Counted from the first letter of the stretch, positions 21,678 to 36,452 are shown. The stretch: 58,165 nucleotides of DNA from Bacilli bacterium (GCA_028709545.1 JAQVWT010000002.1:1-58165), one strand, 5' to 3'. The notes: a model not told the origin generated them from the letters alone. Program-made: numbers and translations.

Positions 21678-22972
21678 CTCATATCTACATTATAATTATG
21701 AATTATTTGTTCTTCAGTTAAGGAAGTATTATAAACTCTAATTGATTTAAAAATCTCATCATAACTACTTCCGCCAATATATAAGATATTATTTGCTACA
21801 CTCACTAAGTTAGAAGTGTTTTTTAAAAATTCACCATTTATATAAATATCAATATTTGTAGAATTTTTTACAAGGGTAATAGTATTAAATGAATTTACTG
21901 TAAGTCCAGTTGAATTACTAGTTGTATATACAATTAAACTAGCATTATTATTTAACATAATAAAATTAGTTAAATAATTGGGACTAGAAGCCAACCTTAA
22001 ATGATTTTTAGCTCTAAATTCAATCGTATATCTATCTACGCTATTAATAATATTATATATATTTAATTTAGTATTAATAAATATAGTGGCTGGAATAGTT
22101 ACCCCACTAGTCAGATTATTAGTAAAATTTCCGCTGTTGAGAGTTCCATCCATATTAGTTCCAGATAAATCTTTAAAATAATTAGCAGAAGTTTTAAATC
22201 CTAGATTTCCACTATAATTTAAATTATCATAATGAAGTACTAGTGACTTTTCATCATTAACCTCATGAGTATAATATAATACATTATAAGGATTATTTAT
22301 TACTCCAATACCAGAAGAAATAGGAGTATTCTTTGATACATTTATAACAAGTCTTAGCCCATATTTAGTTGAATTATTTTGTGTTATTTTAGTTCTTTTT
22401 TTCACACTACACAGATTATTTACATCACAAGAATATTGATATAAATAAAAACTATTACTACTTTGATCATAATAAAAATATTCACTATTATTACTAAGTA
22501 AAGATTTTTTTAAAAGGAGATCATCTATCATCTCAAAGCTAGTTATTAACTCTTTAGTAAAATAAGTAATATAATTTTTAGAGGTCGACCCGGTTGTATA
22601 CATATTATAAAAGCGGTTAATTTCATCTTGTAAAAATGTTATATCTTTATTAACACTAGTCATCATAACCACATTATCACTAACAAGTGTAATATCATTA
22701 CTATTAACACTTGATACAACCCAATTTATATTCTTGGTGCTGACATTATTAATATTAGTAAAAACTGGTATATTAATATAACTTCCAACTTCTACATCAG
22801 CAAGTGTCCTTTTACCAACATTAGATAAGTTTTCTTTAATACTATCAATTGTATTATTATGAAGAGTTCGATTATGTAAAAAGTTCCCAACTAAACCTAA
22901 TAGCACTGCACAGAAAATCAAGAAAAATGAATATAATAAAGACGTTGCTATAAAGCCACTATTTTTTTTCAT
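21665..22972 (-). CDS. Minor-pilin-like protein with a C-terminal LamG/concanavalin-A-like lectin domain
   Basis: N-terminus KKNSGFIATSLLYSFFLIF (pilin-like, no Glu at +5). The C-terminus ...IFKSIRVYNTSLTEEQIIHNY is typical of LamG_3 domains. Start at the ATG 6 nt after AGGAGAG. Confidence 0.55.
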   Translation of the reverse strand: MKKNSGFIATSLLYSFFLIFCAVLLGLVGNFLHNRTLHNNTIDSIKENLSNVGKRTLADVEVGSYINIPVFTNINNVSTKNINWVVSSVNSNDITLVSDNVVMMTSVNKDITFLQDEINRFYNMYTTGSTSKNYITYFTKELITSFEMIDDLLLKKSLLSNNSEYFYYDQSSNSFYLYQYSCDVNNLCSVKKRTKITQNNSTKYGLRLVINVSKNTPISSGIGVINNPYNVLYYTHEVNDEKSLVLHYDNLNYSGNLGFKTSANYFKDLSGTNMDGTLNSGNFTNNLTSGVTIPATIFINTKLNIYNIINSVDRYTIEFRAKNHLRLASSPNYLTNFIMLNNNASLIVYTTSNSTGLTVNSFNTITLVKNSTNIDIYINGEFLKNTSNLVSVANNILYIGGSSYDEIFKSIRVYNTSLTEEQIIHNYNVDMRWNQ

Positions 22973-23043
22973 AACCATCTCTCCTACTATTATCATTTTA
23001 CTAAACTTATCTTAAAAAGTCTAATATATTTTTCCACAGAAAA

Positions 23044-23073
23044 AATCAATTATAAGATTATTTATAATTGATT
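23044..23073 (-). terminator. Terminator (12-bp perfect inverted repeat)
   Basis: AATCAATTATAA-N6-TTATAATTGATT, followed by a U-run on the minus strand. Confidence 0.5.
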
Positions 23074-23276
23074 AGCACCCTTTTACTTAAAAGAATATAT
23101 TATACTAGGTGATAGTCGTGTGTGGTAAACCAAATCCTTTTAATGGTTTTTTCGGAATAATTGGTATATTTATTTTATGTGTTTTAATAACTTATCAAGT
23201 AATACTTACTTTCTTTGTACCATTTAGATTTAATTTAATAATTTTATTTGTTGAAATATGTCTCTTATTTTTTATT

Positions 23277-24134
23277 TTATATAAAATAATATGGCCTTAT
23301 TAAATTTTCGGTTTTATATATATATGTCATTAGATTGTTTACTTTCGTAGTATTATCATATTCAAAATTAGTAAACTCGATCTTTTTAGGAAGAGATATC
23401 ATAATAAAAAACAATTTCTTTTCTTCATCACTTAAAGGAAATCTTTGATTATATACTTCAAAAAAATTACTAAATTCATATTTATTATAATCATTTGAAT
23501 AAAGATTCATTAAATCAAGAACTGGAGTATCAATTGTATATTTATCCCAAGATATAAAGTAATCATCAGTACTTGATAAAAAATGTTCAACCGATAAATT
23601 ATTATGACAATAAACTACTCTTTCTTTAGTTTTCTCACTCATCATTTTTAACCACTCATCTAACTCTTTTTTTATAAAGGTAAAGTTGGCGAGCAGTTTA
23701 CTGCTATTACGAATTAGTAAATAACTAGATGGACTCATAACTACATCCCCAGCGATAACATCAAACTGCTGATTATAATAGTTTTCAATATCAATAATAT
23801 TACTTTCAATACCTTCATATATTTTTTTAACATAATCAGCAGTTATCGGTTTAAAGTAAGCTGTTTTATTATGAAGAAGGGCAAGTAAATTTGCCATATC
23901 TGATGCTTTTTGGTTAGTAGGAATATTTACACTATCAATATAGTCAAATATATAATTATTATCATCTTCATCAATAATCTCTGGATAATTATGAAACTGT
24001 CTTGTATTTAAATAATCATATAAAGATTTTAAATCTTTATTTTTTTCTTTAATTACATATTTTTTATCATCACTTGATAATATTTTAGTTTTACCAGCAA
24101 GAGTTATTTTAGCTCGCTGCTTCTTCATCAGCAA
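23277..24134 (-). CDS. CotS/YsxE-like spore coat kinase-fold protein
   Basis: Follows a SpoVID-like gene as in B. subtilis spoVID-ysxE. Has a phosphotransferase-like CHNNLSVEHF segment. Confidence 0.45.
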   Translation of the reverse strand: MLMKKQRAKITLAGKTKILSSDDKKYVIKEKNKDLKSLYDYLNTRQFHNYPEIIDEDDNNYIFDYIDSVNIPTNQKASDMANLLALLHNKTAYFKPITADYVKKIYEGIESNIIDIENYYNQQFDVIAGDVVMSPSSYLLIRNSSKLLANFTFIKKELDEWLKMMSEKTKERVVYCHNNLSVEHFLSSTDDYFISWDKYTIDTPVLDLMNLYSNDYNKYEFSNFFEVYNQRFPLSDEEKKLFFIMISLPKKIEFTNFEYDNTTKVNNLMTYIYKTENLIRPYYFI

Positions 24135-24801
24135 TTATTAACTTGGAATTAATAGTAAGCTCATCAATATTATTAAGTTTTTTTAAATCATTTAAAGATA
24201 TATCATATTTAGAACATATACTTTCAACAGTATCTATAGGAGTTACCGTATGAACATGATAAGTAATAAAACTTTCCTCAGAATTAATATTATTTATAAT
24301 TGCTTCTTTATTAATACCTTCTTCATCTCTTATGTCTTCAACAGGTGGTTCTTCTTCTGGAGTCTTTACTTCTTCCGGGGTCTTTACTTCTTCTGTTCTA
24401 TTTTCTTCAGATAAATCGATAACTTCTGCATCTGTTTCTTGCAAAAACTCCTCTAAATCACTTTCCTCGGCAAACTCAATCAAACTTTGTTCTCCACTTA
24501 CTAAGTATTCGATATGAACGCTTAGTTCATCTTCATTAACATTATAAGAAAAATCATTTATTTCTACTTCAACAGTATCTAAATTAACATTACTTCTTAC
24601 TTCATTATTAAAGGGTACCTTAAAACTAAAGTCTTCTTTATTAATACTTACTTCATGAAGACGATAGTCACCAGAGATAATAAACTCACCTATTACTTTA
24701 GAATCATCAACATCAAAACTATGTTCAAGTGATATACTTGTAATAGCATGAATATTATTTTTAAATAAAAACTCTTTATCTAGTACATAAACTTCATTCA
24801 T
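24109..24801 (-). CDS. spoVID: SpoVID-like protein (N-terminal SPOCS-like region, acidic repeat, C-terminal LysM)
   Basis: C-terminal LysM (YHVHTVTPIDTVESICSKYDISLNDLKKLNN), an acidic KTPEEV repeat, and its context with the ysxE-like gene. Confidence 0.5.
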   Translation of the reverse strand: MNEVYVLDKEFLFKNNIHAITSISLEHSFDVDDSKVIGEFIISGDYRLHEVSINKEDFSFKVPFNNEVRSNVNLDTVEVEINDFSYNVNEDELSVHIEYLVSGEQSLIEFAEESDLEEFLQETDAEVIDLSEENRTEEVKTPEEVKTPEEEPPVEDIRDEEGINKEAIINNINSEESFITYHVHTVTPIDTVESICSKYDISLNDLKKLNNIDELTINSKLIIADEEAAS

Positions 24802-24873
24802 CTAATCAATCCTTTCTAAAAAATTATATGTAATAGATAAAATTTTACCACTAAAAAAGAAGCCAATGACTTC

Positions 24874-27153
24874 TTATCTTAAAAACAACTTTTTATATAC
24901 CTCATCATATTTAGAGACGGTTATTAGTGATAAATCATCAATAATAAATTTAGGTATATCTTTTAGATCTATAATATTAGCTTTAGGTAAATAAATAGTT
25001 TTAATCCCATTATTATAAGCCGTAATTATTTTATCTTTTAGTTTACTTACTTTTAAAACATTACCATATAAATCTATACTACCAATAAAAGCGATCGTGT
25101 TATCAATTTTCTTTTTACTTATTAAACTTAAAATTCCCGATATTATTCCCAGTGCACCACTATAACCATCTATTTTAAAATTAGATTCAAAATGAAGATG
25201 AAGACCACTGTTTTTTAATATTTTAGAATCTATATAATTCACGCTTTTTAAATAACTAATAATTAAATTAATCGAGTCAAGTAATCTTTCGCCAACATTA
25301 CCAGTAACTGTTAAAGTAGTATCACTTGAAACAAGCGCTGAGCCAACATTTATTATTTCTCCCCCTAAAGGGCTTGCTCCTAATATATTAACTGAGCCGA
25401 TCATTCCTTCTTTTAAAACAGTTTCATATAATTTATTGCCAAGTACCGATGAAACATATTCTAAAGTTATCTTACTAGGAGTAATTTTATTAATAATAAT
25501 ATTACGAATTAGTTTATCTAAAACTCTTTCTAACTCTCTTACTCCACTTTCTAAAGTATAATTACTAATTATATAAAGAATTATATCTTCACTGATTTTG
25601 ACTTTTCTAGCACCATATCTAATAAATATATTAGGTATTAAATAATTAAGAGCAATATATTTTTTATCATAAATAGTATATGAATCAAGATGGATGATTT
25701 CTAGACGATCTTTTAAAGGAGCGGGAATTACTTCTTCATCATTTGCAGTCAATATAAATAAGACTTTAGATAAATCAAATGGTTCTTCTATATAATTATC
25801 AACAAATAATTTATTTTGATTAACATCAAGTATATCCAAAAGAACTGATGCTGGATCTCCCTTAAAATCTTTAACCATTTTATCAACTTCATCAATTAAA
25901 ATTACGGGATTATCGACTCCTACTTTTTTAATTCCGGAAATTATTTTACCAGGAGATGCCCCTAAATATGTTCTCCTGTGACCAGTTAGTTCACTAGAAT
26001 CATTAAGTCCACCGACACTTATTTTAAAGAATTCTCTTTTTAAAGCTTTACTAATACTCATCGCTAGGGTTGTTTTTCCAACCCCAGGCGGACCCACAAA
26101 ACAAAGAATTGGACTAGAAATATCATTATTTAACTCTTTTAAAGCTGCATACTCTTCTATTCTTTCTTTAATAATACTTACACCATAATGAGTTTTATCA
26201 AGAGATGTTCTAATATTTTTAGCTTTTAATTCTTCTTTAGATGATTTATTAAAAGGAAGACTTATAACTGTTTCAATATAATTTCTTATTATCGATAAAT
26301 CCGGACTATTATCAGGAGTGTATTCATATTTTCTAAGTTCATTCAAAAGCTTTTCTTTTGTTTCATTACAGACATCTAAATTATTGATTTTATCATGGTA
26401 AATAGATGCTTCTTCAGTTTTAGAACTAGATACACCTAATTCTTCATTAAGCTTCTGTATTTTAGCTTTAAGTAAATAATCTTTTTGCTCTTTCTCAAAA
26501 TCATTTCTAATTTCATAATCAAGTTTATTATTAAGTTTAATAACTTCAAGTTCTATATTTAATTCTTTAATTAACTTTTTAGCTCTTTTTACTTCACTTA
26601 GCTCATTCATATAGATTGTTTTTTTATTTATAGGAAGATTAATAAAATTAACAATAAGATCAGTTAATTCATCAAGGGAAACACTTTCATTAATTTTATG
26701 AGAAATACTGTTTGATACTTCTGGATTTAGTCTAATATATGATTTAGTAAGATCAATTAACTTTCTTTTTAAAGCTACTCCCTCAGTATTTTCTCCAGTA
26801 TCAATATATAATCTTTTAATTGAAGAAATAATAACTTTTTGGTCATCTTTATAGGTTGAATAATTAAGTACCTCAACCCTATGAAGACCTTTTATTACAA
26901 CTCGGTAGTTCCCATTAGGAAGCTCAATTTTACTAACTACTGAAGTTAAAATCCCTACCTTTGGTAAATCTTTAACTGATGGAGATACTTCTAAAAAATT
27001 AATTGGTAAAATAACTAATATTTTATTATGAAAAACGCCCTCACTTAAATCAATAATCTTCTTAGAAAGATCATTATTAAGTTCTAGGCGCACTTCTTGA
27101 AGAGGCAAAAGAGTTAGTTTTTTAAGTAAAAGAACTGGTAAATTCTCTTTCAT
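24874..27153 (-). CDS. lon: ATP-dependent Lon protease (LonA type, divergent protease motif)
   Basis: N-terminal LON domain, Walker A GPPGVGKT, and a C-terminal Ser-Lys domain (DGYSGALG...KLKDK). Confidence 0.85.
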   Translation of the reverse strand: MKENLPVLLLKKLTLLPLQEVRLELNNDLSKKIIDLSEGVFHNKILVILPINFLEVSPSVKDLPKVGILTSVVSKIELPNGNYRVVIKGLHRVEVLNYSTYKDDQKVIISSIKRLYIDTGENTEGVALKRKLIDLTKSYIRLNPEVSNSISHKINESVSLDELTDLIVNFINLPINKKTIYMNELSEVKRAKKLIKELNIELEVIKLNNKLDYEIRNDFEKEQKDYLLKAKIQKLNEELGVSSSKTEEASIYHDKINNLDVCNETKEKLLNELRKYEYTPDNSPDLSIIRNYIETVISLPFNKSSKEELKAKNIRTSLDKTHYGVSIIKERIEEYAALKELNNDISSPILCFVGPPGVGKTTLAMSISKALKREFFKISVGGLNDSSELTGHRRTYLGASPGKIISGIKKVGVDNPVILIDEVDKMVKDFKGDPASVLLDILDVNQNKLFVDNYIEEPFDLSKVLFILTANDEEVIPAPLKDRLEIIHLDSYTIYDKKYIALNYLIPNIFIRYGARKVKISEDIILYIISNYTLESGVRELERVLDKLIRNIIINKITPSKITLEYVSSVLGNKLYETVLKEGMIGSVNILGASPLGGEIINVGSALVSSDTTLTVTGNVGERLLDSINLIISYLKSVNYIDSKILKNSGLHLHFESNFKIDGYSGALGIISGILSLISKKKIDNTIAFIGSIDLYGNVLKVSKLKDKIITAYNNGIKTIYLPKANIIDLKDIPKFIIDDLSLITVSKYDEVYKKLFLR

Positions 27154-27182
27154 ATGTACTGCCTCCTTTTGATATGTGTTTT

Positions 27183-27211
27183 ATTATAGTATTTAAAAAA
27201 TGTTTTGTAAA
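27183..27211 (-). promoter_or_regulatory. Candidate promoter for lon
   Basis: Minus strand reads TTTACA - 17 nt - TATAAT, upstream of the AAGGAGG RBS. Confidence 0.4.
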
Positions 27212-27376
27212 GGATTAGGTCGTATTTTGTCGAAAAAATTGGAAGTTAATTTTTCATTTCTAATTTACTAAGATAGTTTTTAGCAATATGAGTATCACTT
27301 CTCATTATCTTTTTATCTGGCGAACCTTTTCATATAATTATTCCTGATGACACGTTTTTTATCTGAATTTTTTTAA

Positions 27377-27905
27377 TTATTTATTTTTAATTGATGATAG
27401 TTCAGATATATTTTCAAGTTTTTGGATTCTATTGTCTGTTGTTAATAATTTCATTTGATATATGGCAATTTCATTAAGTCTAATTAACCTTTCTTTTTGA
27501 ATTAAACCTTCGTTTATATAAACCGAATTTAAATTTTCTAAATTAACTAAACATACTAACTCTGCAACATTAGCATAATTTCTCACGTTATCGACTTTAT
27601 CTTGATTTTTATTTTGCCAAACAGAAGCAGTCATACCAAATAATGCCATGTTTATTTGCATCAGTATGAATATTATAATTTATTTTTGATAGTGTTCTTT
27701 TTAAATTCCATCCAAATTCTTTTTGTTCCATTGTCTTTAATCGTTTGAACTCCGTCATAACATATAATCTAAATTCTGGACTCATCCAACTAGCAAATTC
27801 TAGTGCAATATCAACATGTGCAAAAGTTTCTATACTGTATTTACCACCTTTTGATATAAAACCAATGGCACTTGTTCTTTTTTTGTATTTCTTTCAATTT
27901 AATAA
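27377..27905 (-). pseudogene. KilA-N domain protein remnant (N-terminally truncated, internal deletion plus frameshift)
   Basis: One frame reads GFISKGGKYSIETFAHVDIALEFASWMSPEFRLYVMTEFKRL...NYNIHTDA. It then shifts to a second frame, ..ALFGMTASVWQNKN...NVRNYANVAELVCLVNLENLN... Confidence 0.55.
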
Positions 27906-28225
27906 ACCTCCTAAGACTGTTTTATAATCTTTTATATTTGTTTTGATAATGATTTTTTATTAAATCGTACGATAATTTTTTTCTTTTACTCTAAATCAAT
28001 TTGATTCCATATGTTAACAAAGTTTGAAAATATCACATAATGATCTTTCTACATTAGAAAAATTGATTTCTTCACTTTGAATACTTTTAATTATTGTCCT
28101 TCTACTAAGATATATTGTAGTAAAATTTCTATTTGCTTTTTTATTAATAGCAATGTTAAGTTATATCTATAATTAAATTAGTATGTACCTTCACTAAGGA
28201 AAAATTTTCCTCTTCTCCTTACAAA

Positions 28226-28305
28226 AGTAACATAAATAAAACTGCACTAATTTTAGTACAGTTTTATTTTATTGAAAATATTTTTAAATCTTCATCAGTT
28301 AATTT
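28226..28305. repeat. 80-bp direct repeat, copy A (duplicate of the pdp 3' end plus terminator)
   Basis: Identical to 29748..29827 except for 1 nt. Contains the CTGCACTA/TAGTGCAG hairpin. Confidence 0.9.
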
Positions 28306-28316
28306 TATATTTTTGA

Positions 28317-29516
28317 TTATTCTTCTAATAAAAAGTCAATTATATTTATTAGTTTTATACCTCTAATATCCTTAATAAAATTTTTATCATTAGAAATGAT
28401 TGTTTTCTCATAATGATTATTAGGGATATCTAAACTTCTAGTTTCTCTTTCTAAAACATCTGAGGATAGATTATAAACAACTTGATAGTACTTCTTTTCT
28501 GATTCTTTAGTCGCTATAAAATCTATTTCATAATCATTATTTTTACCAATCCATACTTGGTATCCTCTTCTAATAAGTTCTAAATAAACTATTGTTTCTA
28601 AAATATGTCCATAGTCAGTATCCCGGTATCCAACTATTGCGTTTCTTACTCCAGTATCAATAATATAATATTTAGCAAGAGTTTTTAATAATAATTTCCC
28701 TTTAATATCATATCTAGGAACTTTAGATATAATATAAGCTTTTTCTAAATATAAAAGATAATTATCTACCGTATTATGACTAGTTAACTGACCGCCATCT
28801 TTTAAGTAATTACTTATTTTGTTTGGAGAAATAATATTACCAGTATTTTGAGCTACAAATGCCATAACGTTATGAAGCAGTGCTATATCTTTAATATCAT
28901 TTCTTTCAATAACATCTTTCATTATAACCGTATTGTATATATCCTTTAGATATGTATTAATTGTTGCTTCATCTTTTTTTAATTCGCTTATTACTGGCAA
29001 TCCTCCATATTTAGTGTAATTTATGAAGTGCTCATCAGTGGTAATATTATTATTTTGATTAAAATCCAAATATTCCTTAAATGAAAGAGGCATCATTTTT
29101 ATTTCAACATATCTTCCAGATAAAAGAGTTGATAATTCGCTTGAAAGCAAATAAGCATTTGACCCAGTTATATAAAGATCTGAATTAAAATCTACCATAA
29201 ATGAATTAATAGCTTTTTCCCATTTTTCTATCAATTGAACTTCATCAAGAAGTATATATACTTTTCCTTTTAATTTACTTATTAGGAGTTTAACATAATC
29301 GTATAAGTCTTCATAATTCTGAATTTCCTTAAATTTAACAGATTCAAAATTAATTAAAATTATATTATTTTCTTTGATACCATTATTAATTAAATATTCC
29401 TTAAATAATAAGAGCAATGTTGATTTACCACTTCTTCTCATTCCCGTAATTACTTTTATTAAATTCGTATCTTTAAAATCAACTAATTTATTTAAATATA
29501 AATCTCTTTTTTTCAT
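28317..29516 (-). CDS. AAA-family ATPase with a DUF4143-like C-terminal domain
   Basis: Walker A GMRRSGKST and Walker B ILLDEVQ. The C-terminus resembles the restriction-endonuclease-like DUF4143. A paralog fragment lies at 57834..58165. Confidence 0.75.
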   Translation of the reverse strand: MKKRDLYLNKLVDFKDTNLIKVITGMRRSGKSTLLLLFKEYLINNGIKENNIILINFESVKFKEIQNYEDLYDYVKLLISKLKGKVYILLDEVQLIEKWEKAINSFMVDFNSDLYITGSNAYLLSSELSTLLSGRYVEIKMMPLSFKEYLDFNQNNNITTDEHFINYTKYGGLPVISELKKDEATINTYLKDIYNTVIMKDVIERNDIKDIALLHNVMAFVAQNTGNIISPNKISNYLKDGGQLTSHNTVDNYLLYLEKAYIISKVPRYDIKGKLLLKTLAKYYIIDTGVRNAIVGYRDTDYGHILETIVYLELIRRGYQVWIGKNNDYEIDFIATKESEKKYYQVVYNLSSDVLERETRSLDIPNNHYEKTIISNDKNFIKDIRGIKLINIIDFLLEE

Positions 29517-29536
29517 AACATTTCACCCTAAAAATC

Positions 29537-29594
29537 ATTATACTACTGCAATAAGCAAAAGTCAAGTTTTGTTTGTGCAGAGACAAAACTTGAC
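29537..29594 (-). promoter_or_regulatory. Promoter of the ATPase gene with an overlapping 12-bp inverted repeat
   Basis: Minus strand reads TTGACT - 17 nt - TATAAT. The inverted repeat GTCAAGTTTTGT-N10-ACAAAACTTGAC (29561..29594) covers the -35 box. Confidence 0.45.
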
Positions 29595-29747
29595 ATTTAT
29601 CCAACTTTTCGTTTGTAGTTACCAGAAAATATACAGCCAAATTTATGTATAAGCAACAGCGAATATCAAGAAATATTTGTTTATTTCTAACTTCATAGAT
29701 AACAATAACCCTCTTCTAAGGAGATTATGTCTTTTTTTCCTTAGAGA

Positions 29748-29827
29748 AGTAACATAAATAAAACTGCACTAATTTTAGTGCAGTTTTATTTTATTGAAAA
29801 TATTTTTAAATCTTCATCAGTTAATTT
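29748..29827. repeat. 80-bp direct repeat, copy B (authentic pdp 3' end plus bidirectional terminator)
   Basis: See copy A. The hairpin is flanked by A- and T-runs. Confidence 0.9.
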
Positions 29828-31006
29828 AATATTTAAATTTTTAACATAGAGCTCAGCTAAAGCTTCATCTTTTTTAACTTTATCACCTATATTTTTCAGT
29901 AGTTTAATACCTACTCCATAATCAATTTTAGATTTTTTAGTTTCTCTGCCAGCCCCAAGCTTCATAGCAAGACGTCCACAGTTTATTGCGCTTATCGCAT
30001 CAATTGTACCTTCTAAACTACTTTTTAAAGTAATAACTTTATCACTTACTTTAAGCTTTGATAAGTCTCCACCTTGAGTTATAATCCATTTCTTAAACAT
30101 CTTATGAGCGTTATCATTATCAAGAGCATTCTTGCAAAGTATTTTAGCATCTTTAACCGGAATCTCTTTTGCCATAGCAACAATACTTGCTGCAATATCT
30201 ATACTTACATCACGAAGGGGACATTTCTTTCCTTTTAAGACTTCAATAGCCTCAAGTACTTCTAAAGCATTACCAATAGAAGAAGATAAAGGACTATCCA
30301 TTGGCGTAATTAAAGTTTTAACATCCTTTTTAAAATGTTTACCGATCGATAAAAGCATCTTACTAAATTCTTTAGCATCATCAACACTCTTAATAAATGC
30401 CCCATTACCATACTTGATATCAATAACAATATAAGAAGCTCCACAGGCAATCTTTTTACTCATAATGGAAGCTGCTATTAAAGGCATTGACTCAGTGGTG
30501 CCCGTTACATCTCTTAAACTATAAATAACTTTATCAAGTGGAACTAAGTCATCAGTTTGAGAGCTAATAACAATACCTATTTTATTTACTTGATTATAAA
30601 ACTCTTCTTTACTTAACTCTACTTTATAACCAGGGATACTCTCAAGTTTATCAATAGTACCACCTGTATAACCAAGACCCCTACCACTCATTTTTGCCAT
30701 AGGGATATTCATACTAGCTACAATCGGCGCGATTATAAAAGTTGCAGTATCACCTATTCCTCCCGTACTATGCTTGTCACTTACCTTTTTATTAAATTTA
30801 TAAACATCTCCACTTTTTATAAAGACATCTGTTAAAGCAAGAGTTTCCTTCATTGTCATTCCATTAATAGTGATTGCCATTAAAAGTGCACTCATTTGAT
30901 AATCGGGAATACTTTTATTTAAATAAGAACAGAATGCAAAAGAAAGTTCATCATACGATAACTCTTCTTTATTTTTCTTTTTCAATATTATTTCTATTAT
31001 ATTCAT
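29786..31006 (-). CDS. pdp: Pyrimidine-nucleoside (thymidine) phosphorylase
   Basis: DKHSTGGIGD phosphate-binding motif and overall family layout. Confidence 0.9.
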   Translation of the reverse strand: MNIIEIILKKKNKEELSYDELSFAFCSYLNKSIPDYQMSALLMAITINGMTMKETLALTDVFIKSGDVYKFNKKVSDKHSTGGIGDTATFIIAPIVASMNIPMAKMSGRGLGYTGGTIDKLESIPGYKVELSKEEFYNQVNKIGIVISSQTDDLVPLDKVIYSLRDVTGTTESMPLIAASIMSKKIACGASYIVIDIKYGNGAFIKSVDDAKEFSKMLLSIGKHFKKDVKTLITPMDSPLSSSIGNALEVLEAIEVLKGKKCPLRDVSIDIAASIVAMAKEIPVKDAKILCKNALDNDNAHKMFKKWIITQGGDLSKLKVSDKVITLKSSLEGTIDAISAINCGRLAMKLGAGRETKKSKIDYGVGIKLLKNIGDKVKKDEALAELYVKNLNIKLTDEDLKIFSIK

Positions 31007-31026
31007 AATTATCCCAACTTTTTTCG

Positions 31027-31058
31027 GTGCTGAGAGGACTAAAGCCCTCTAACAGCAC
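31027..31058 (-). other. Conserved imperfect hairpin downstream of the target1 stop codon
   Basis: GTGCTGAGAGG-loop-CCTCT-aa-CAGCAC, with no following U-tract. Duplicated at 34495..34526. Confidence 0.5.
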
Positions 31059-31064
31059 ACCATC

Positions 31065-32192
31065 TTAACTTATTATTATGTATGGATCAGATATACTACC
31101 TGTTCCTGTTAGTTTTTTAACAGTAGATTTTAGATATAAAGAAGGACGCCCCCCGAACCCAATGCTCGCATAGTCATAGTCCACGTAGCCGCTAAAGTAC
31201 ACATACCACACACAGCTTGAGTATGACGAGTGCGGGACTAATGTCCACTCATATCCTTCTCCTCTTAACCATGCTTTCCCACCGCACATTGCACTACTAT
31301 AGCTTCCTAAACTGGTTGTTCTGGCACATGATGTTTCTAAAACAGAATATCCATAATCACTAGCATACATTAATCCTATATATCCACTTGTCTCTGTTGT
31401 CCCTCTTTCATCTGCATAAACAGCTTCTGCAGTTGACATCGAAGCTATTCCTCCTAGTTTCCATGTTACATTTTCTATCATTTCTCTATAATAATTACTT
31501 GTTATTCCAGTTTCTGTAAAATTACATACTCCTGGTATTGTAGTACTATATTGATAACAATAATTTAGACTTTCTTCATTGCTGCCATTGTAATAGTGAG
31601 TATTTAATAAATTATATAAAGATGATGCTGGCCAATCATTAGTATTACTCTTATCCCAAGCAAATGCTCCAATTGATGATCCTCTTATTATTTTAACTAA
31701 GTTTTCTCCTTCTTTTCCATGAGTACTTTCATCAAACACACCAATTATTCGCCAGAGTTCATTATTAAACATTAACCAGTTATCTGGGTTTTCTCCTTCA
31801 TAACGATAATCTGTTGCATCATATTGAATATCACCTACAACATACGACATCTCTTCAGCATATACACCATCATCATTTGTTAAACTCATTATATAAGCTG
31901 CTAGGTTTTCTGTAGTTTCAGTTGTAAAATTTAAAATACATCTTGCTTCATTATTAATATTTTTTATATTAAGTACCCAATCATCATAATCCCATGAAGC
32001 ATCCGCATTTTGACAAACACTCTTAATTTTAAAATTTCCTTTAGTAGGAATTGAGGATTGTTCTACTCCATCGACCATTACGGCAAGATATACATTATCA
32101 TCGTATAAAAAGTATTTATCTCTACTTTTTATATTTATTAATATTAGTGATATCACTAATATTAATAATCCTATTCCAATCTTTTTTTTCAT
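31065..32192 (-). CDS. DGR target protein 1 (signal-anchored surface protein with a variable C-terminal ligand-binding-type domain)
   Basis: N-terminal TM. The C-terminal ~280 aa is nearly identical to 34533..36080 except inside the VR. VR1 encodes ...LVPHSSYSSCVWYVYFSGYVDYDYASIGFGGRPSLYLK. Confidence 0.85.
   Translation of the reverse strand: MKKKIGIGLLILVISLILINIKSRDKYFLYDDNVYLAVMVDGVEQSSIPTKGNFKIKSVCQNADASWDYDDWVLNIKNINNEARCILNFTTETTENLAAYIMSLTNDDGVYAEEMSYVVGDIQYDATDYRYEGENPDNWLMFNNELWRIIGVFDESTHGKEGENLVKIIRGSSIGAFAWDKSNTNDWPASSLYNLLNTHYYNGSNEESLNYCYQYSTTIPGVCNFTETGITSNYYREMIENVTWKLGGIASMSTAEAVYADERGTTETSGYIGLMYASDYGYSVLETSCARTTSLGSYSSAMCGGKAWLRGEGYEWTLVPHSSYSSCVWYVYFSGYVDYDYASIGFGGRPSLYLKSTVKKLTGTGSISDPYIIIS
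31148..31241 (-). repeat. DGR variable repeat VR1 (94 bp)
   Basis: Colinear with the TR. Of 17 differences, 15 fall at TR adenines (coding strand). Confidence 0.9.
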
Positions 32193-32194
32193 TT

Positions 32195-32476
32195 TTAATC
32201 AGCAGTCCCTTCTATTTGCTTTATCATATTTATAAAAAATGCTCTTAATAAATATAACTGATAATTATTATCTTCATTTTCACTAATAAATTCTATTTCT
32301 AAATTATCTATTATAATATAATTAATTTTATTTTTTTGAAGATCCCTAATGTTTTTAAAATTAATAAAGTTTAATATTAATTTATCATAATTAAATGTGT
32401 GATATTTATCTTTCTTTTTGACTAAAAGTAAATAATTATTATATTTTCTTTTAAAAAATAAATATCTGTTTTTCAT
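32195..32476 (-). CDS. Small protein weakly resembling the MutS-domain-I-like gene at 34075..34467
   Basis: YLLLVKKKDKYHTFNYDKLILNFINFK parallels ALIIYKNNGKFYNVFDIDAYIFNILFNYK. Its stop abuts the target1 start. Confidence 0.35.
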   Translation of the reverse strand: MKNRYLFFKRKYNNYLLLVKKKDKYHTFNYDKLILNFINFKNIRDLQKNKINYIIIDNLEIEFISENEDNNYQLYLLRAFFINMIKQIEGTAD

Positions 32477-32507
32477 TCTACTCCCACTCTCTTTAGATAT
32501 AGTGCTA

Positions 32508-32530
32508 AGAAAGCAAATATTTTGCTTTCT
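32508..32530 (-). other. Perfect 10-bp hairpin downstream of the TR
   Basis: AGAAAGCAAA-tat-TTTGCTTTCT. Confidence 0.5.
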
Positions 32531-32636
32531 ATCTATATTTATATTCGGAAAATATATTCCAGGATAACTTATGTTCTTTAAATGCTCCTTTAAAAAGCCT
32601 TAACCATTTTAACATTCTACATTTAATGAGCTAGTA

Positions 32637-32730
32637 GCCCCCCGAACCCATTGTTCGCATTGTTATTGTTCACGTTGCCGTTATAGTTCACATTCCACAC
32701 ATTGTTCGAGTTAGACGAGTGCGGGACTAA
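32637..32730 (-). repeat. DGR template repeat (TR, 94 bp, non-coding)
   Basis: The minus strand carries 13 AAY codons in the VR frame (LVPHSSNSNNVWNVNYNGNVNNNNANNGFGG). It starts 31 nt after the RT stop, with a TAG just upstream in frame. Confidence 0.9.
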
Positions 32731-32761
32731 ATTAAGCTACCCCTATCATAATTAATAAAAT

Positions 32762-33739
32762 TTAATCCCAAATTTTATTAATTATTTTACCTATTTCATA
32801 TTTATTTGCAAATATAAATGAATTTTTATAATTCATAATACTAGAAAATTCTTCTTCCAGTGATAACAAATTATTTTTAGTTTCATAATTAAGTTTTTTT
32901 AGATTCTTTTCTATTCTCTTTTTTGTATCCGTACTTATTTTAATTATTGTTTTTTTGTTAATAATTTTAAAATTATAACCTAAGAACACTATCCCGTGCT
33001 TAATATTTCTAATATAAGTTTTTTTCTTATTTAATTCAATATCAAATTCTTTATTTAACTTCTCTTCGATTTTATATTTGTGTAGCTTTGATAAATAAAA
33101 TATAGCAAGAAACTGGGAAGAAAGATTACCAATAGGAATACCTTTACCATCTTTATATTCAGGAATTTTATTCGCGCCGTTTTTATTTACTTCAGTAATA
33201 TACTTTTTTATATAGTTTTTATTTGTACTGTCAATTACTTTTTCTACTAATAAATATTCATCCTTACTTAAATCTTTTCTTAACAGCTGTTTTAAAATAT
33301 CATGATTTATGCTATAAAAATATTTCGATAACTCAAACTTTAAAACAAAAATATCATTATGAATTTTATTTTTTTCTAAAAATTTTTTTAACATTTTTAT
33401 AGCATAACTTGTCCCCATTCCTTTTCTAGTTGCTGAATTATTTTTAAGCAAATACTTGCTTAATTTAGGCTCTAAAATATATCTTGTAATATAATGATTA
33501 ATTATCTTATCATATATATTTTGACTCATAATCAACCTTAATTTCGGTTTAGTTATTAAAAATAAATTATATTTGCCACCATCATATTTTCCATTTAATA
33601 AATTATCTCTAATATCAAGCAAATACTCTATTTTATGTAATTCAAATTTATATAATTTACTTTTATTCTTAACATTTTTGGAAATTTCATTATCATAGAT
33701 ATTAAGTAAATTTTCTAAAGTTAAAGAATCACTAAGCAT
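32762..33739 (-). CDS. DGR-type reverse transcriptase, apparently missing the YxDD box
   Basis: KPKLRLI, RKGMGT and IPIGNLSSQ (DGR hallmark) motifs, and FLGYNF. No YxDD anywhere in the ORF, and the motif-A position reads FELSKYF. Confidence 0.8.
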   Translation of the reverse strand: MLSDSLTLENLLNIYDNEISKNVKNKSKLYKFELHKIEYLLDIRDNLLNGKYDGGKYNLFLITKPKLRLIMSQNIYDKIINHYITRYILEPKLSKYLLKNNSATRKGMGTSYAIKMLKKFLEKNKIHNDIFVLKFELSKYFYSINHDILKQLLRKDLSKDEYLLVEKVIDSTNKNYIKKYITEVNKNGANKIPEYKDGKGIPIGNLSSQFLAIFYLSKLHKYKIEEKLNKEFDIELNKKKTYIRNIKHGIVFLGYNFKIINKKTIIKISTDTKKRIEKNLKKLNYETKNNLLSLEEEFSSIMNYKNSFIFANKYEIGKIINKIWD

Positions 33740-34088
33740 TATTACCTTCTTTATTCTTTTTCCAAGCTTTAACCATTTTTGTTATTTCTGTTAACAGATA
33801 TCCTTCTTTTTCAAGTTGTTTAAGAGATATGTACTTTTTTCTATATAATATTTCTAATAAAAAATCAAGAATGCTAATATTTTTTATAATATTTAAATAA
33901 TGAGTTTCAAAATCATCTAAATCAGAATTTGCTAGATATATGTTTTCTAATAAATCAAAAGTTGTAAGATTAATTTTTTCTTTTATAAAAAAATCTTTTC
34001 TAGGAATATTTTCCATTAAGTTATATAAATCTAATATAAACTTTTTTGTTTTTTTAGATATAATAAAATTATCATTAAAGACTCTCAT
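33732..34088 (-). CDS. avd: Accessory variability determinant (Avd-like four-helix-bundle protein)
   Basis: 118 aa, helical, with an IPRK motif near helix 1 and a basic C-terminus. Overlaps the RT start. Confidence 0.75.
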   Translation of the reverse strand: MRVFNDNFIISKKTKKFILDLYNLMENIPRKDFFIKEKINLTTFDLLENIYLANSDLDDFETHYLNIIKNISILDFLLEILYRKKYISLKQLEKEGYLLTEITKMVKAWKKNKEGNNA

Positions 34089-34467
34089 TAATAATATCTA
34101 TGATCCTTTCTAAATCATCAGCACTAGCAACCATTAATTTCTTATTAATTAAATTTAATTTATCATTCAATAAAATTTTGTTTTTTGCCTCGTTATAATA
34201 TTTAGAATAAGTATTAAATTTAAATTTTTTACCTTCGGCATCTTTATCTTTATAAATAATTTGATAAGAAATTTTCTCGTTTTCTATTGTATTTATAATT
34301 TTGTTTAAAGCATTGTCTGGAAATCCCGCTTTATTATTAATTACTTTATAATTAAATAATATATTAAAAATATAAGCATCTATATCAAAAACATTATAAA
34401 ACTTACCATTATTCTTGTAGATTATTAATGCTGTTTTTTTATTTTTATTAATATGCTTGGTAGACAA
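34075..34467 (-). CDS. MutS domain I (mismatch-binding)-like small protein, DGR accessory
   Basis: ALIIYKNNGKFYNVFDIDAYIFNILFNYKVINNKAGFPDNALNKIINTIENEKISYQII aligns by eye with E. coli MutS [30 protein letters not shown]...[25 protein letters not shown]. Confidence 0.6.
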   Translation of the reverse strand: MSTKHINKNKKTALIIYKNNGKFYNVFDIDAYIFNILFNYKVINNKAGFPDNALNKIINTIENEKISYQIIYKDKDAEGKKFKFNTYSKYYNEAKNKILLNDKLNLINKKLMVASADDLERIIDIINESL

Positions 34468-34494
34468 TTTTCTTCCTCCTTCTATTTTTTTTTG

Positions 34495-34526
34495 GTGCTG
34501 AGAGGACTAAAGCCCTCTAACAGCAC
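34495..34526 (-). other. Conserved imperfect hairpin downstream of the target2 stop codon
   Basis: Same sequence as 31027..31058. Followed by an A-run and the AGGAGG RBS of the next gene. Confidence 0.5.
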
Positions 34527-34532
34527 ACTTTC

Positions 34533-36080
34533 TTAACTTATTATTATGTATGGATCAGATATACTACCTGTTCCTGTTAGTTTTTTAACAGTAGATTTTA
34601 GATATAAAGAAGGACGCCCCCCGCACCCATTGCTCGCAGGGTCATTGTACACGAGGCCGGTACCGGACACAAGCCACACACTGATTGAGCTTGACGAGTG
34701 CGGGACTAATGTCCACTCATATCCTTCTCCTCTTAACCATGCTTTCCCACCGCACATTGCACTATTATAACTTCCTAAACTGGTTGCTCTGGCACATGAT
34801 GTTTTTAAAACAGAATATCCATAATCACTAGCATACATTAATCCTATATATCCACTTGTCTCTGTTGTCCCTCTTTCATCTGCATAAACAGCTTCTGCAG
34901 TTGACATCGAAGCTATGCCTCCTAGTTTCCATGTTACATTTTCTATCATTTCTCTATAATAATTACTTGTTATTCCAGTTTCTGTAAAATTACATACTCC
35001 TGGTATTGTTATACTATATTGATAACAATAATTTAGACTTTCTTCATTGGTTCCATTGTAATAGTGAGTATTTAATAAATTATATAAAGATGATGCTGGC
35101 CAATCATTAGTATTACTCTTATCCCAAGCAAATGCTCCAATTGATGATCCTCTTATTATTTTAACTAATTTTTCTCCTGTTTTTCCATGAGTACTTTCAT
35201 CAAACACACCAATTATTCGCCATAGTTCATTATTAAACATTATCCAGTTATCTGGGTTTTCTCCTTCATAACGATAATCTGTTGCTGGTTCATTATATAC
35301 ACCATCATCATTTGTTAAACTCATTATATAATCAGCTAGATTTTCTGTGTTTTCAGTTTTACTAGTTAAATTTATTTTCTGATCAGTACTATCTAGTGAG
35401 TTTATTGTAATACCCCCTAGTTTATAATTCCAAGTGGCACCTACAAAGTTAGTATTATATGAGCCTGATGGTTGATCTGGTATTTGAAGTGTTAAATTTG
35501 CTGGCATTGTTACTACTGAGGCTGTTACGGTTATTTTTGATTGAAAAGTTTTGTTTGCTCCCTGTTCAGTAGTTGTTGCCTCATCTACCCACAATCTTAA
35601 ATCAAATGTTGCAAAATCATTTGGAAATAAACTAGTTCCAGAGGAAATAGCATAGCTCGTAGCACCATCTATAGTAGGTGTTACTTGTGGGTTACTACTA
35701 AGTAAACTTGATGTATTATTAAGTGCTACTTTGACATAATCCGAGCTTAGAGTTGACACTGGCAATACTTCTAAGTTTATATCAAGTTCTGTATATACAT
35801 CACAGTTATTTGTTACTTTAAAAGTATATGGGGTTTTAGTCATACCTTCAGAGTCTGGTATAGGATACTCTCCTTCCAAGTTAATTGCATTTGTTACATC
35901 TGTAAAAGTTATATCTAAGCATTTTAAAGTATCTAGTTGATTAATACCTGATTGAGTAGCTGACTTTCGCCAGTAGGCATAGGAAATACTCAATATTATA
36001 ACTAGTAATAATATTGGTCCTAAAATAATTAAAAATTTTTTTGACTTACTATCTATCTTTTTCATAATTTTATTATACAA
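34533..36080 (-). CDS. DGR target protein 2 (signal-anchored surface protein, longer N-terminal region)
   Basis: N-terminal anchor plus ISYAYWR, Ig-like segments, and a C-terminal domain paralogous to target1. VR2 encodes LVPHSSSSISVWLVSGTGLVYNDPASNGCGGRPSLYLK. Confidence 0.85.
   Translation of the reverse strand: MYNKIMKKIDSKSKKFLIILGPILLLVIILSISYAYWRKSATQSGINQLDTLKCLDITFTDVTNAINLEGEYPIPDSEGMTKTPYTFKVTNNCDVYTELDINLEVLPVSTLSSDYVKVALNNTSSLLSSNPQVTPTIDGATSYAISSGTSLFPNDFATFDLRLWVDEATTTEQGANKTFQSKITVTASVVTMPANLTLQIPDQPSGSYNTNFVGATWNYKLGGITINSLDSTDQKINLTSKTENTENLADYIMSLTNDDGVYNEPATDYRYEGENPDNWIMFNNELWRIIGVFDESTHGKTGEKLVKIIRGSSIGAFAWDKSNTNDWPASSLYNLLNTHYYNGTNEESLNYCYQYSITIPGVCNFTETGITSNYYREMIENVTWKLGGIASMSTAEAVYADERGTTETSGYIGLMYASDYGYSVLKTSCARATSLGSYNSAMCGGKAWLRGEGYEWTLVPHSSSSISVWLVSGTGLVYNDPASNGCGGRPSLYLKSTVKKLTGTGSISDPYIIIS
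34616..34709 (-). repeat. DGR variable repeat VR2 (94 bp)
   Basis: Colinear with the TR. Of 20 differences, 16 fall at TR adenines. Confidence 0.9.
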
Positions 36081-36104
36081 AAAAAAAGCCTTGATTTCAA
36101 GACT

Positions 36105-36452
36105 TTAGTTTCCAGTTCTTTCTTTTACTTTGTATTCTTTAACCATTTTGTCTAAGAAGTTAAGTTTAGCTCTTCTAACAAAACCTTTTTTAATAACAGT
36201 TATCTTATCAACAAGCGGGCTATTTACTGGGAATGTTCTTTTAACAACAACACTTCCACTTTTCTTTCTTACTGTAAAAGTCTCTGAGACTGATCCACCT
36301 TTTTTAGATATTACTAACCCTTCAAAAGCTTGGATTCTTTCTTTTTTTCCTTCTTTGATCCAAACATCAACTCTAACAATATCTCCTACTCTAAATTCAG
36401 GAGTATCAGGTTTAATTTGTTTAGCATCAATCTTCTTAATTAATTCATTCAT
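36105..36452 (-). CDS. rplS: 50S ribosomal protein L19
   Basis: PEFRVGDIVRVDVWIKEGKKERIQAFEG is typical of L19. Start at MNELIKK (115 aa). Confidence 0.93.
   Translation of the reverse strand: MNELIKKIDAKQIKPDTPEFRVGDIVRVDVWIKEGKKERIQAFEGLVISKKGGSVSETFTVRKKSGSVVVKRTFPVNSPLVDKITVIKKGFVRRAKLNFLDKMVKEYKVKERTGN

Follow-up and report, generated by a model that had tools for sequence, protein, structure and literature searches.

The locus described here raises the question of whether the reverse transcriptase (RT) of its DGR can still do its work and, if not, since when. The RT gene (32762..33739, minus strand) lies in a 58,165-nt stretch of DNA from a Bacilli bacterium (GCA_028709545.1, JAQVWT010000002.1), referred to below as the window. 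An earlier note had claimed that the 325-aa product appears catalytically crippled, by an in-frame loss of motif C and a Glu in place of the motif-A Asp, yet that both VRs carry a clean adenine-mutagenesis signature. It offered three readings: the element was active until recently and is now fossilised, it depends on an RT acting in trans, or the RT-like protein has a non-polymerase role.

All genes of the cassette are on the minus strand, in the order target 1, MSL, avd, RT, TR, small ORF and target 2. Target gene 1 (34533..36080; 515 aa if its longest ORF is taken) encodes a protein with a hydrophobic anchor at the N-terminus and a variable domain at the C-terminus and carries VR1 (34616..34709) at its 3′ end. 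It is followed by a small MutS-domain-I-like accessory gene of putative MSL type (34075..34467, 130 aa) and by the accessory gene avd (33732..34088, 118 aa), which overlaps the RT start by 8 nt. Downstream of the RT gene are the 94-nt TR (32637..32730), a conserved 93-aa ORF located between TR and target 2 (ORF93, 32195..32476) and target gene 2 (31065..32192, 375 aa), a paralogue of target gene 1 with VR2 (31148..31241) at its 3′ end. Both VRs are in frame in the target ORFs, in codon phase 0 and ~30 codons ahead of the stops, and the TR, whose target-frame reading is LVPHSSNSNNVWNVNYNGNVNNNNANNGFGG, is rich in AAY codons (...NSNNVWNVNYNGNVNNNNANN...). The same layout is common to a large clade in gut Bacilli/Tenericutes MAGs, many of which contain two RTs of this DGR family. 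The window shares with the Bordetella phage BPP-1 DGR an IGxxxSQ motif 4, an Avd partner, adenine-specific TR/VR differences and a VR at the target C-terminus. In contrast to BPP-1, its TR is located downstream of the RT gene, a putative MSL-type gene and a further small ORF are present, and the cassette, which has a paralogous target on each side, lies in a chromosomal setting.

Avd was recognized by the Pfam bAvd profile (E 1.6e-12, 48.3 bits versus a cut-off of 40). The 130-aa product scored just below the cut-off of the Pfam MutS_I profile (E 8.8e-4, 19.9 bits versus 20.6), and the position of its gene is conserved among relatives. MSL accessory genes of DGRs were described in 2018 under 'Architecture D' (Wu et al., NAR 46:11; PMC5758913). 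The window resembles this architecture in having a small gene alongside avd that may be MutS-domain-I-like but departs from it in the MutS_I match just under the cut-off, in the conserved 93-aa ORF after the TR and in the target gene on each side. ORF93 itself shows a faint MutS_I similarity (E 0.096) and, as judged from sequence, may be a second MSL-like accessory gene; no significant similarity between the 130-aa and 93-aa proteins was revealed by BLASTP. Its orthologues, 92-97 aa in length, occupy the same position in contigs L083-L085 and L087-L090 (nucleotides 2032-2313 in L083, 2873-3151 in L084 and 2104-2394 in L087), and the L083 orthologue is roughly 60% identical to it by eye. ORF93 starts with an ATG in the window, whereas strains with an intact RT (see below) have an ATA there and a start further upstream.

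Over ~800 nt at their 3′ ends (34487-35285 versus 31019-31817), the two target genes share 95.6% identity. Half of the differences between the targets fall within the 94-nt VR, and the repeat is the point at which short-read contigs of this region break (e.g., L088-L090, L094 and the NCBI contig). The targets belong to a large protein family: 2077 members were retrieved at E ≤ 1e-20, and PF19789 is carried by a few of them; a protein search for target alleles of the same species retrieved none closer than 71% besides the window's own paralogue. Genes neighbouring the cassette are chromosomal: a pyrimidine-nucleoside phosphorylase and Lon are encoded on one side and, by sequence, a putative ribosomal protein L19 on the other. 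The GC content of the window is ~25%, the RT has its relatives in gut 'Bacilli/Tenericutes' MAGs, and the best RT homologue among the genome contigs searched is 63% identical. The host is likely to be an uncultured low-GC gut bacterium of the Bacilli/Tenericutes type that carries the DGR in its chromosome.

Reading of the 325-aa ORF agreed with the motifs that had been quoted for it and with the lack of any DD dipeptide: KPKLRLI, RKGMGT, IPIGNLSSQFLAIFYL and VLKFELSKYFYSINH are all present, motifs 1-2 are kept and RT motif 4, [LIV]GxxxSQ, is found as IPIGNLSSQ. The protein has more than 500 family homologues and matches DGR RTs at 45-63% identity. Its closest solved structure is bRT (PDB 8ub7), which ranks first in a sequence search (E 1e-10) and also in a Foldseek comparison with an AlphaFold2 model (E 3.5e-9, TM 0.60).

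In the family alignment, a 32-column gap opens in the window RT immediately C-terminal to LHKY, the point at which ~30 residues carrying YxDD had been said to be missing. Comparison with a full-length relative, P0241, gave the same figure: exactly 32 residues, IIEDLKLEDMICYMDDYIIVHPNKQYLKECLF, are absent, which make up motif C and its hairpin including YMDD. Among the best 120 homologues, [YF]xDD is missing from this gene only. When the protein was compared with PDB sequences by phmmer, query residues 6-156, 197-219 and 243-275 aligned with bRT residues 13-158, 175-197 and 251-282, respectively. The equivalents of bRT residues ~198-229 are absent from the window RT, so that the bRT YMDD (residues 213-216) has no counterpart, and Glu136 faces bRT Asp138, as had been proposed. 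The residue at position 136 is Asp in 115 out of 117 relatives; codon 136 (33332..33334) is GAG in the window versus GAT in all intact alleles. When 77 columns conserved at ≥95% in the 117 relatives were inspected, D136E and the deleted columns were the only private violations. The Pfam RVT_1 profile (PF00078) scored the 325-aa protein at 17.8 bits, under the gathering cut-off of 29.6, and aligned over profile positions 8-136 of 205 only, whereas all listed RT relatives carry a precomputed PF00078 match. No profile placed a YxDD or a motif-A Asp within the ORF. The AlphaFold2 model (pLDDT 78.5, falling below 50 at junction residues 222-224) has an RT fold with fingers and thumb kept and the motif-C hairpin absent, and bRT is its top PDB match; the model is uninformative on any residual function of the deletion protein.

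Changes of this kind are known to be inactivating in well-studied enzymes. Replacement of the bRT YMDD by SMAA, YMDA, YMAD or YMAA abolishes cDNA priming, and SMAA also abolishes homing (PMC5703328), and the D110E variant of HIV-1 RT serves as a catalytic-site dead mutant (PMC11042746). As in the engineered dead bRT and in HIV-1 RT D110E, motif-C and motif-A carboxylates are lost or altered in the window RT; unlike these laboratory point substitutions, the whole motif-C hairpin is gone, and inactivity is a prediction. A catalytically competent RT has a motif-A Asp and a motif-C YxDD, with the two Asp residues 100% conserved in the 2012 DGR survey, and the window RT has neither motif in this form. 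Both lesions named in the earlier note are thus present, and by analogy with the enzymes above the window RT is likely to be catalytically crippled. The locus does possess an RT of the DGR clade, an adenine-biased TR/VR pair, VRs in the 3′ ends of targets and Avd. Judged by these sequences, it is a DGR by descent that has been inactivated as far as RT competence is concerned.

The deletion removes 96 nt in frame, and the 325-aa reading frame stays open, in line with the remark that the ORF would look intact to a gene caller. The junction (33072..33074) lies between Y222 (33076..33074) and K223 (33073..33071), its placement being ambiguous by 1 nt. The only repeat common to both ends of this segment in the intact allele is an imperfect one of 12 nt (ATTATAGAAGAT / AAAATCGAAGAG, 8/12 identical).

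A check of orthologous loci for an intact YxDD, which the earlier note had proposed, retrieved such a version. In the 90%-identity cluster of a protein fragment, P0003, we found a full-length RT of 357 aa, P0241, which shares 98% identity with the window protein and contains Asp136 and HKY-IIEDLKLEDMICYMDDYIIVHPNKQYLKECLF-KIEE. Other samples yielded this allele on at least 13 contigs (SRR8925714, -720, -743, -764, -785, -810, -819 and others; ENA ERZ4239754). An ENA contig, L001, which is 99.35% identical over 770 nt, shows Asp136 and YMDD independently. The deletion allele, on the other hand, comes from one sample only (SRR22315502). On this distribution, the deletion is strain-specific and not a trait of the lineage. 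The MSL and avd genes are identical between the window and the intact strains. A DNA-pattern scan of metagenome and viral contigs for further strains gave 0 matches.

Comparison with the intact haplotype revealed that the window diverges from it very unevenly. From the deletion junction on (33072..32481), 27 of 592 positions are mismatched, versus 2 of 1446 upstream (Fisher p = 4e-13). The divergent tract, which extends from 32481 to 33002 (first and last mismatch, minus strand), comprises the 3′ third of the RT gene and the TR and reaches through the spacer to the start codon of ORF93; it has the appearance of a recombinant segment. Its divergence is 4.6% overall and 3.9% in the coding part, whereas upstream divergence is 0.14% (~99.9% identity); 3′ of 32481 the window is again nearly identical to contigs L089 and L090. 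Since 8 of the 12 differences in the 3′ third of the RT gene are synonymous and 4 are non-synonymous, the divergence appears to have accumulated under purifying selection and not through decay. The two upstream mismatches are a synonymous one at 33587 and the GAT to GAG change at 33332 that creates D136E, which, on this comparison, is a separate hit outside the tract. At the mismatch rate of the tract, the probability of the 259 mismatch-free nucleotides found upstream of the junction is 5e-5, and that of the 70 mismatch-free nucleotides downstream is 0.07. It follows that the left edge of the tract is located at the deletion or tens of nucleotides from it, i.e., within 70 nt of the junction. 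We consider that a single recombination event probably produced both the tract and the deletion.

The TR and VRs hold a record of past activity. The statement that both VRs carry a clean adenine signature stood as far as the strong A-site bias is concerned, but "clean" is a slight overstatement when the window's own TR is the reference: VR1 differs from it at 16 A sites and 4 non-A sites (Fisher p = 4e-7), and VR2 at 15 and 2, respectively (Fisher p = 8e-8). With the ancestral TR as the reference, VR1 shows 16 changes at A sites and 2 at non-A sites (T46G and T86G), and VR2 shows 15 and 0, respectively. The window TR has a T at position 18 (32713) and a G at position 24 (32707), whereas both positions are A in the TRs of all eight intact-RT contigs. 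Both window VRs have A at positions 18 and 24, matching the ancestral and not the resident TR. Thus, the VRs are not derivable from the resident TR, which would have to be identical to them at its non-A positions. The VRs must have been written from an older TR, and in neither VR has this part been overwritten by cDNA of the present TR. The lack of homing since the event may perhaps be due just to its recency.

In an intact-RT contig, L086, VR1 is mutated at both of these adenines (A to G and A to T) and has 14 A-site and 0 non-A changes. The VR1 sequences of the window and L086 differ at 24 sites, 22 of which are TR adenines, and their flanks are nearly identical; the element must therefore have been active in the species very recently. 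Non-A mismatches were considered as a clock of decay and rejected, since 55 TR/VR pairs from intact-RT relatives show 0-6 of them, which makes the 2-4 seen in the window unremarkable. The two private non-A changes of VR1, T46G (34664) and T86G (34624), are non-synonymous (Y to G together with A47G, and F to C, respectively), and they amount to 2 in 94 nt versus 2 in ~1450 nt of flank. Possible sources are RT errors at non-A sites and adaptation by point mutation after inactivation.

The ~99.9% identical intact allele, the A-site differences of VR1 and the TR/VR discordance at positions 18 and 24 favour the first reading of the earlier note. We put the probability at about 80% that this is a strain-specific, recently inactivated ("fossilised") DGR, with a crippled RT, in the chromosome of a host of the kind described above. 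The course of events may have been the following. The ancestral cassette would have been a working DGR, as in the sister strains, in which an Avd/RT complex would copy TR RNA with adenine errors and the cDNA would overwrite both VRs. Recombination with a ~4%-diverged allele would have brought in the 0.6-kb tract, and a crossover misaligned by 96 nt at the weak 12-nt repeat would have removed the motif-C hairpin and both of its catalytic Asp residues in frame. The motif-A Asp would have been changed to Glu separately. With all three metal-binding carboxylates lost or altered, no cDNA would be expected, and both VRs would be frozen.

One can ask whether the lesion exists in the organism at all, since the window derives from a metagenome and the deletion could have come from assembly, PCR or chimeric reads, or the contig could be a strain mosaic or minor variant while the dominant genome is intact. 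Contig JAQUJT010000035.1 of GCA_028680795.1 is 100% identical to window positions 22762..33713, and Logan contig SRR22315502_19458 is 100% identical to 34523..32522, with D136E, the junction and the TR included. Three assemblies therefore agree across the lesion, one of them built independently, and no error was found at ~33040-33080, where the earlier note had placed a possible one. Long direct repeats at the junction, which could have caused slippage or graph collapse, were looked for; only the imperfect 8/12 repeat is present there, too short for a de Bruijn graph to skip 96 nt. Since no direct repeat of k-mer length exists at the junction, k-mers spanning it must occur in the reads. An assembler switching between strains would likewise yield a divergent tract, and the related contig L001 demonstrably ends in a chimera. 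An artefact at the level of the reads may persist in all three assemblies if these were built on shared reads, and the linkage of the VRs, ~1.5 kb to either side, to the TR and RT gene could in principle mix co-existing strains in a metagenome-derived contig. Given the agreement of the assemblies, we regard an artefact or minor variant as highly improbable. If the lesion is real, another DGR RT, itself intact and encoded at a different place in the genome, could still serve the locus by acting on this TR RNA with Avd. No damage is seen in avd, the MSL gene, the TR, either VR or either target ORF, the visible sequence covers 58 kb of the genome, leaving room for an RT elsewhere, and two family RTs each are found in the related MAGs CAYTQE01, UREA01, CALVVI01, CALVVK01, CAKOLL01 and CASFPB01. 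The co-resident RTs of these MAGs, however, look like distant paralogues, judging by their differing identities to the window RT. Within the 58-kb window, no second RT was detected by tblastn with three family RTs or by a six-frame [YF]xDD scan, and no extra TR or VR copy was found. The A opposite T18 and G24 of the TR in both VRs also argues against use of the present TR by any enzyme. To our knowledge, no DGR RT has been established to work with the TR RNA and Avd of another element. We thus consider complementation in trans unlikely, and presumably no other RT serves the locus. Two NCBI-sourced family RTs that were candidates for a second RT of the same MAG, P0007 and P0051, proved to belong to other assemblies.

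Alternatively, the protein could be a pseudo-enzyme that is kept for a non-catalytic role, its loss of catalysis having been selected. Such a protein could bind Avd and TR RNA, locking the DGR off, or its translation could avoid polarity on ORF93 and target 2. The occurrence of two separate lesions in the catalytic centre, with the frame preserved and all other family-conserved residues intact, is unexpected under neutral decay, for which we estimate a chance of roughly 1%, and of the two substitutions private to the window in 1.4 kb, one falls on the motif-A Asp. The roughly 1% figure is weakened by ascertainment, the locus having been picked for its odd look, and by the little time elapsed: at 0.14% upstream divergence, the frame would be expected to stay open and the residues to stay intact even in the absence of selection, and a third of all deletions are in frame by chance. 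The modelled protein keeps the architecture of fingers and thumb, with bRT as the top structural match, but has a pLDDT below 50 at the junction. The overlap of avd with the RT start and the common direction of the genes would fit a role of translation, whereas the presence of the allele in one sample, versus at least 13 intact contigs, gives no sign of spread or persistence. A retained non-catalytic role, in either of the two forms, is accordingly very unlikely in our estimation. Hardly better are the prospects of the selective scenario as such, in which two independent in-frame hits at the active site created a stable RT-like pseudo-enzyme, a natural DGR "off-switch"; if true, it would lock an advantageous pair of VRs or interfere with another DGR, with expression of the operon kept.

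Recent fossilisation, the reading we prefer, has precedents. In the 2012 survey, RT genes were found disabled with VR/TR pairs that keep an essentially pure A-signature, which was read as very recent inactivation (BMC Genomics 13:430, Fig. 4). The window, with its disabled RT and retained A-signature, is a further example of these fossilised DGRs and not a new type of enzyme. Unlike the 2012 cases, which are truncations by nonsense mutation, frameshift or IS insertion, the lesion here is an in-frame 96-nt deletion plus a D-to-E change, invisible to gene callers. The comparative context is also unusually good and goes beyond those cases in offering an intact sister allele, a likely origin by recombination and a discordance of TR and VRs by which the last homing can be dated. 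An intact RT in many samples and a predicted dead RT in one, nearly identical outside a 0.6-kb tract, form a natural before-and-after pair with which one can test directly whether VR microdiversity vanishes once the RT dies. The pair also provides one concrete route of DGR loss, probably misaligned recombination with a diverged allele. Since gene callers and family BLAST searches can accept an RT ORF that has no active site, an RT accompanied by a TR/VR pair with A-bias is no proof of current activity, and DGR surveys should be read with this caution. Where a TR differs from both VRs at former adenines, the VRs are older than the resident TR, and this makes a simple marker that can be applied again elsewhere.

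Several further observations were made in the course of this comparison. Contig L001 (ENA ERZ12298776 NODE_76428) was considered as a second pseudogene with a premature stop. Its nucleotides ~843-913 turned out to be a fold-back chimera, the reverse complement of the true downstream sequence, which when reverse-complemented again reads QYLKECLFKI, with the Illumina adapter AGATCGGAAGAGCACACGTCTGAACTCCAGTCAC after it. Where L001 stops, eight other contigs continue normally, and the spurious stop of the called protein P0003 is due to the chimera. Two RT relatives, P0015 (KFNIKKYFY) and P0048 (KLGISKFFY), keep YMDD and have no motif-A Asp; active-site lesions may recur in the family, or these two may be sequencing errors. 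In contigs L005, L006, L011 and L048, the two VRs flanking the RT gene are identical to one another, whereas 12-31 sites distinguish them in the window, L007, L013 and L026. The identical pairs possibly reflect gene conversion between the paralogous targets or assembly collapse.

A strong promoter-like site (36100..36072, minus strand, TTGAAA-17-TATAAT, 11/12) is located directly upstream of target gene 1, which suggests that the cassette has its own promoter. The site overlaps a terminator-like hairpin (36106..36085) that follows the putative L19 gene. A 23-nt near-palindromic hairpin (AGAAAGCAA-loop-TTGCTTTCT) is found at 32508-32530, ~110 nt downstream of the TR, and could be a part of the DGR RNA or a terminator. 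Its stem is the same in the intact strains, and the loop is AATAT in one and TCTTT in the other of the two haplotypes compared.
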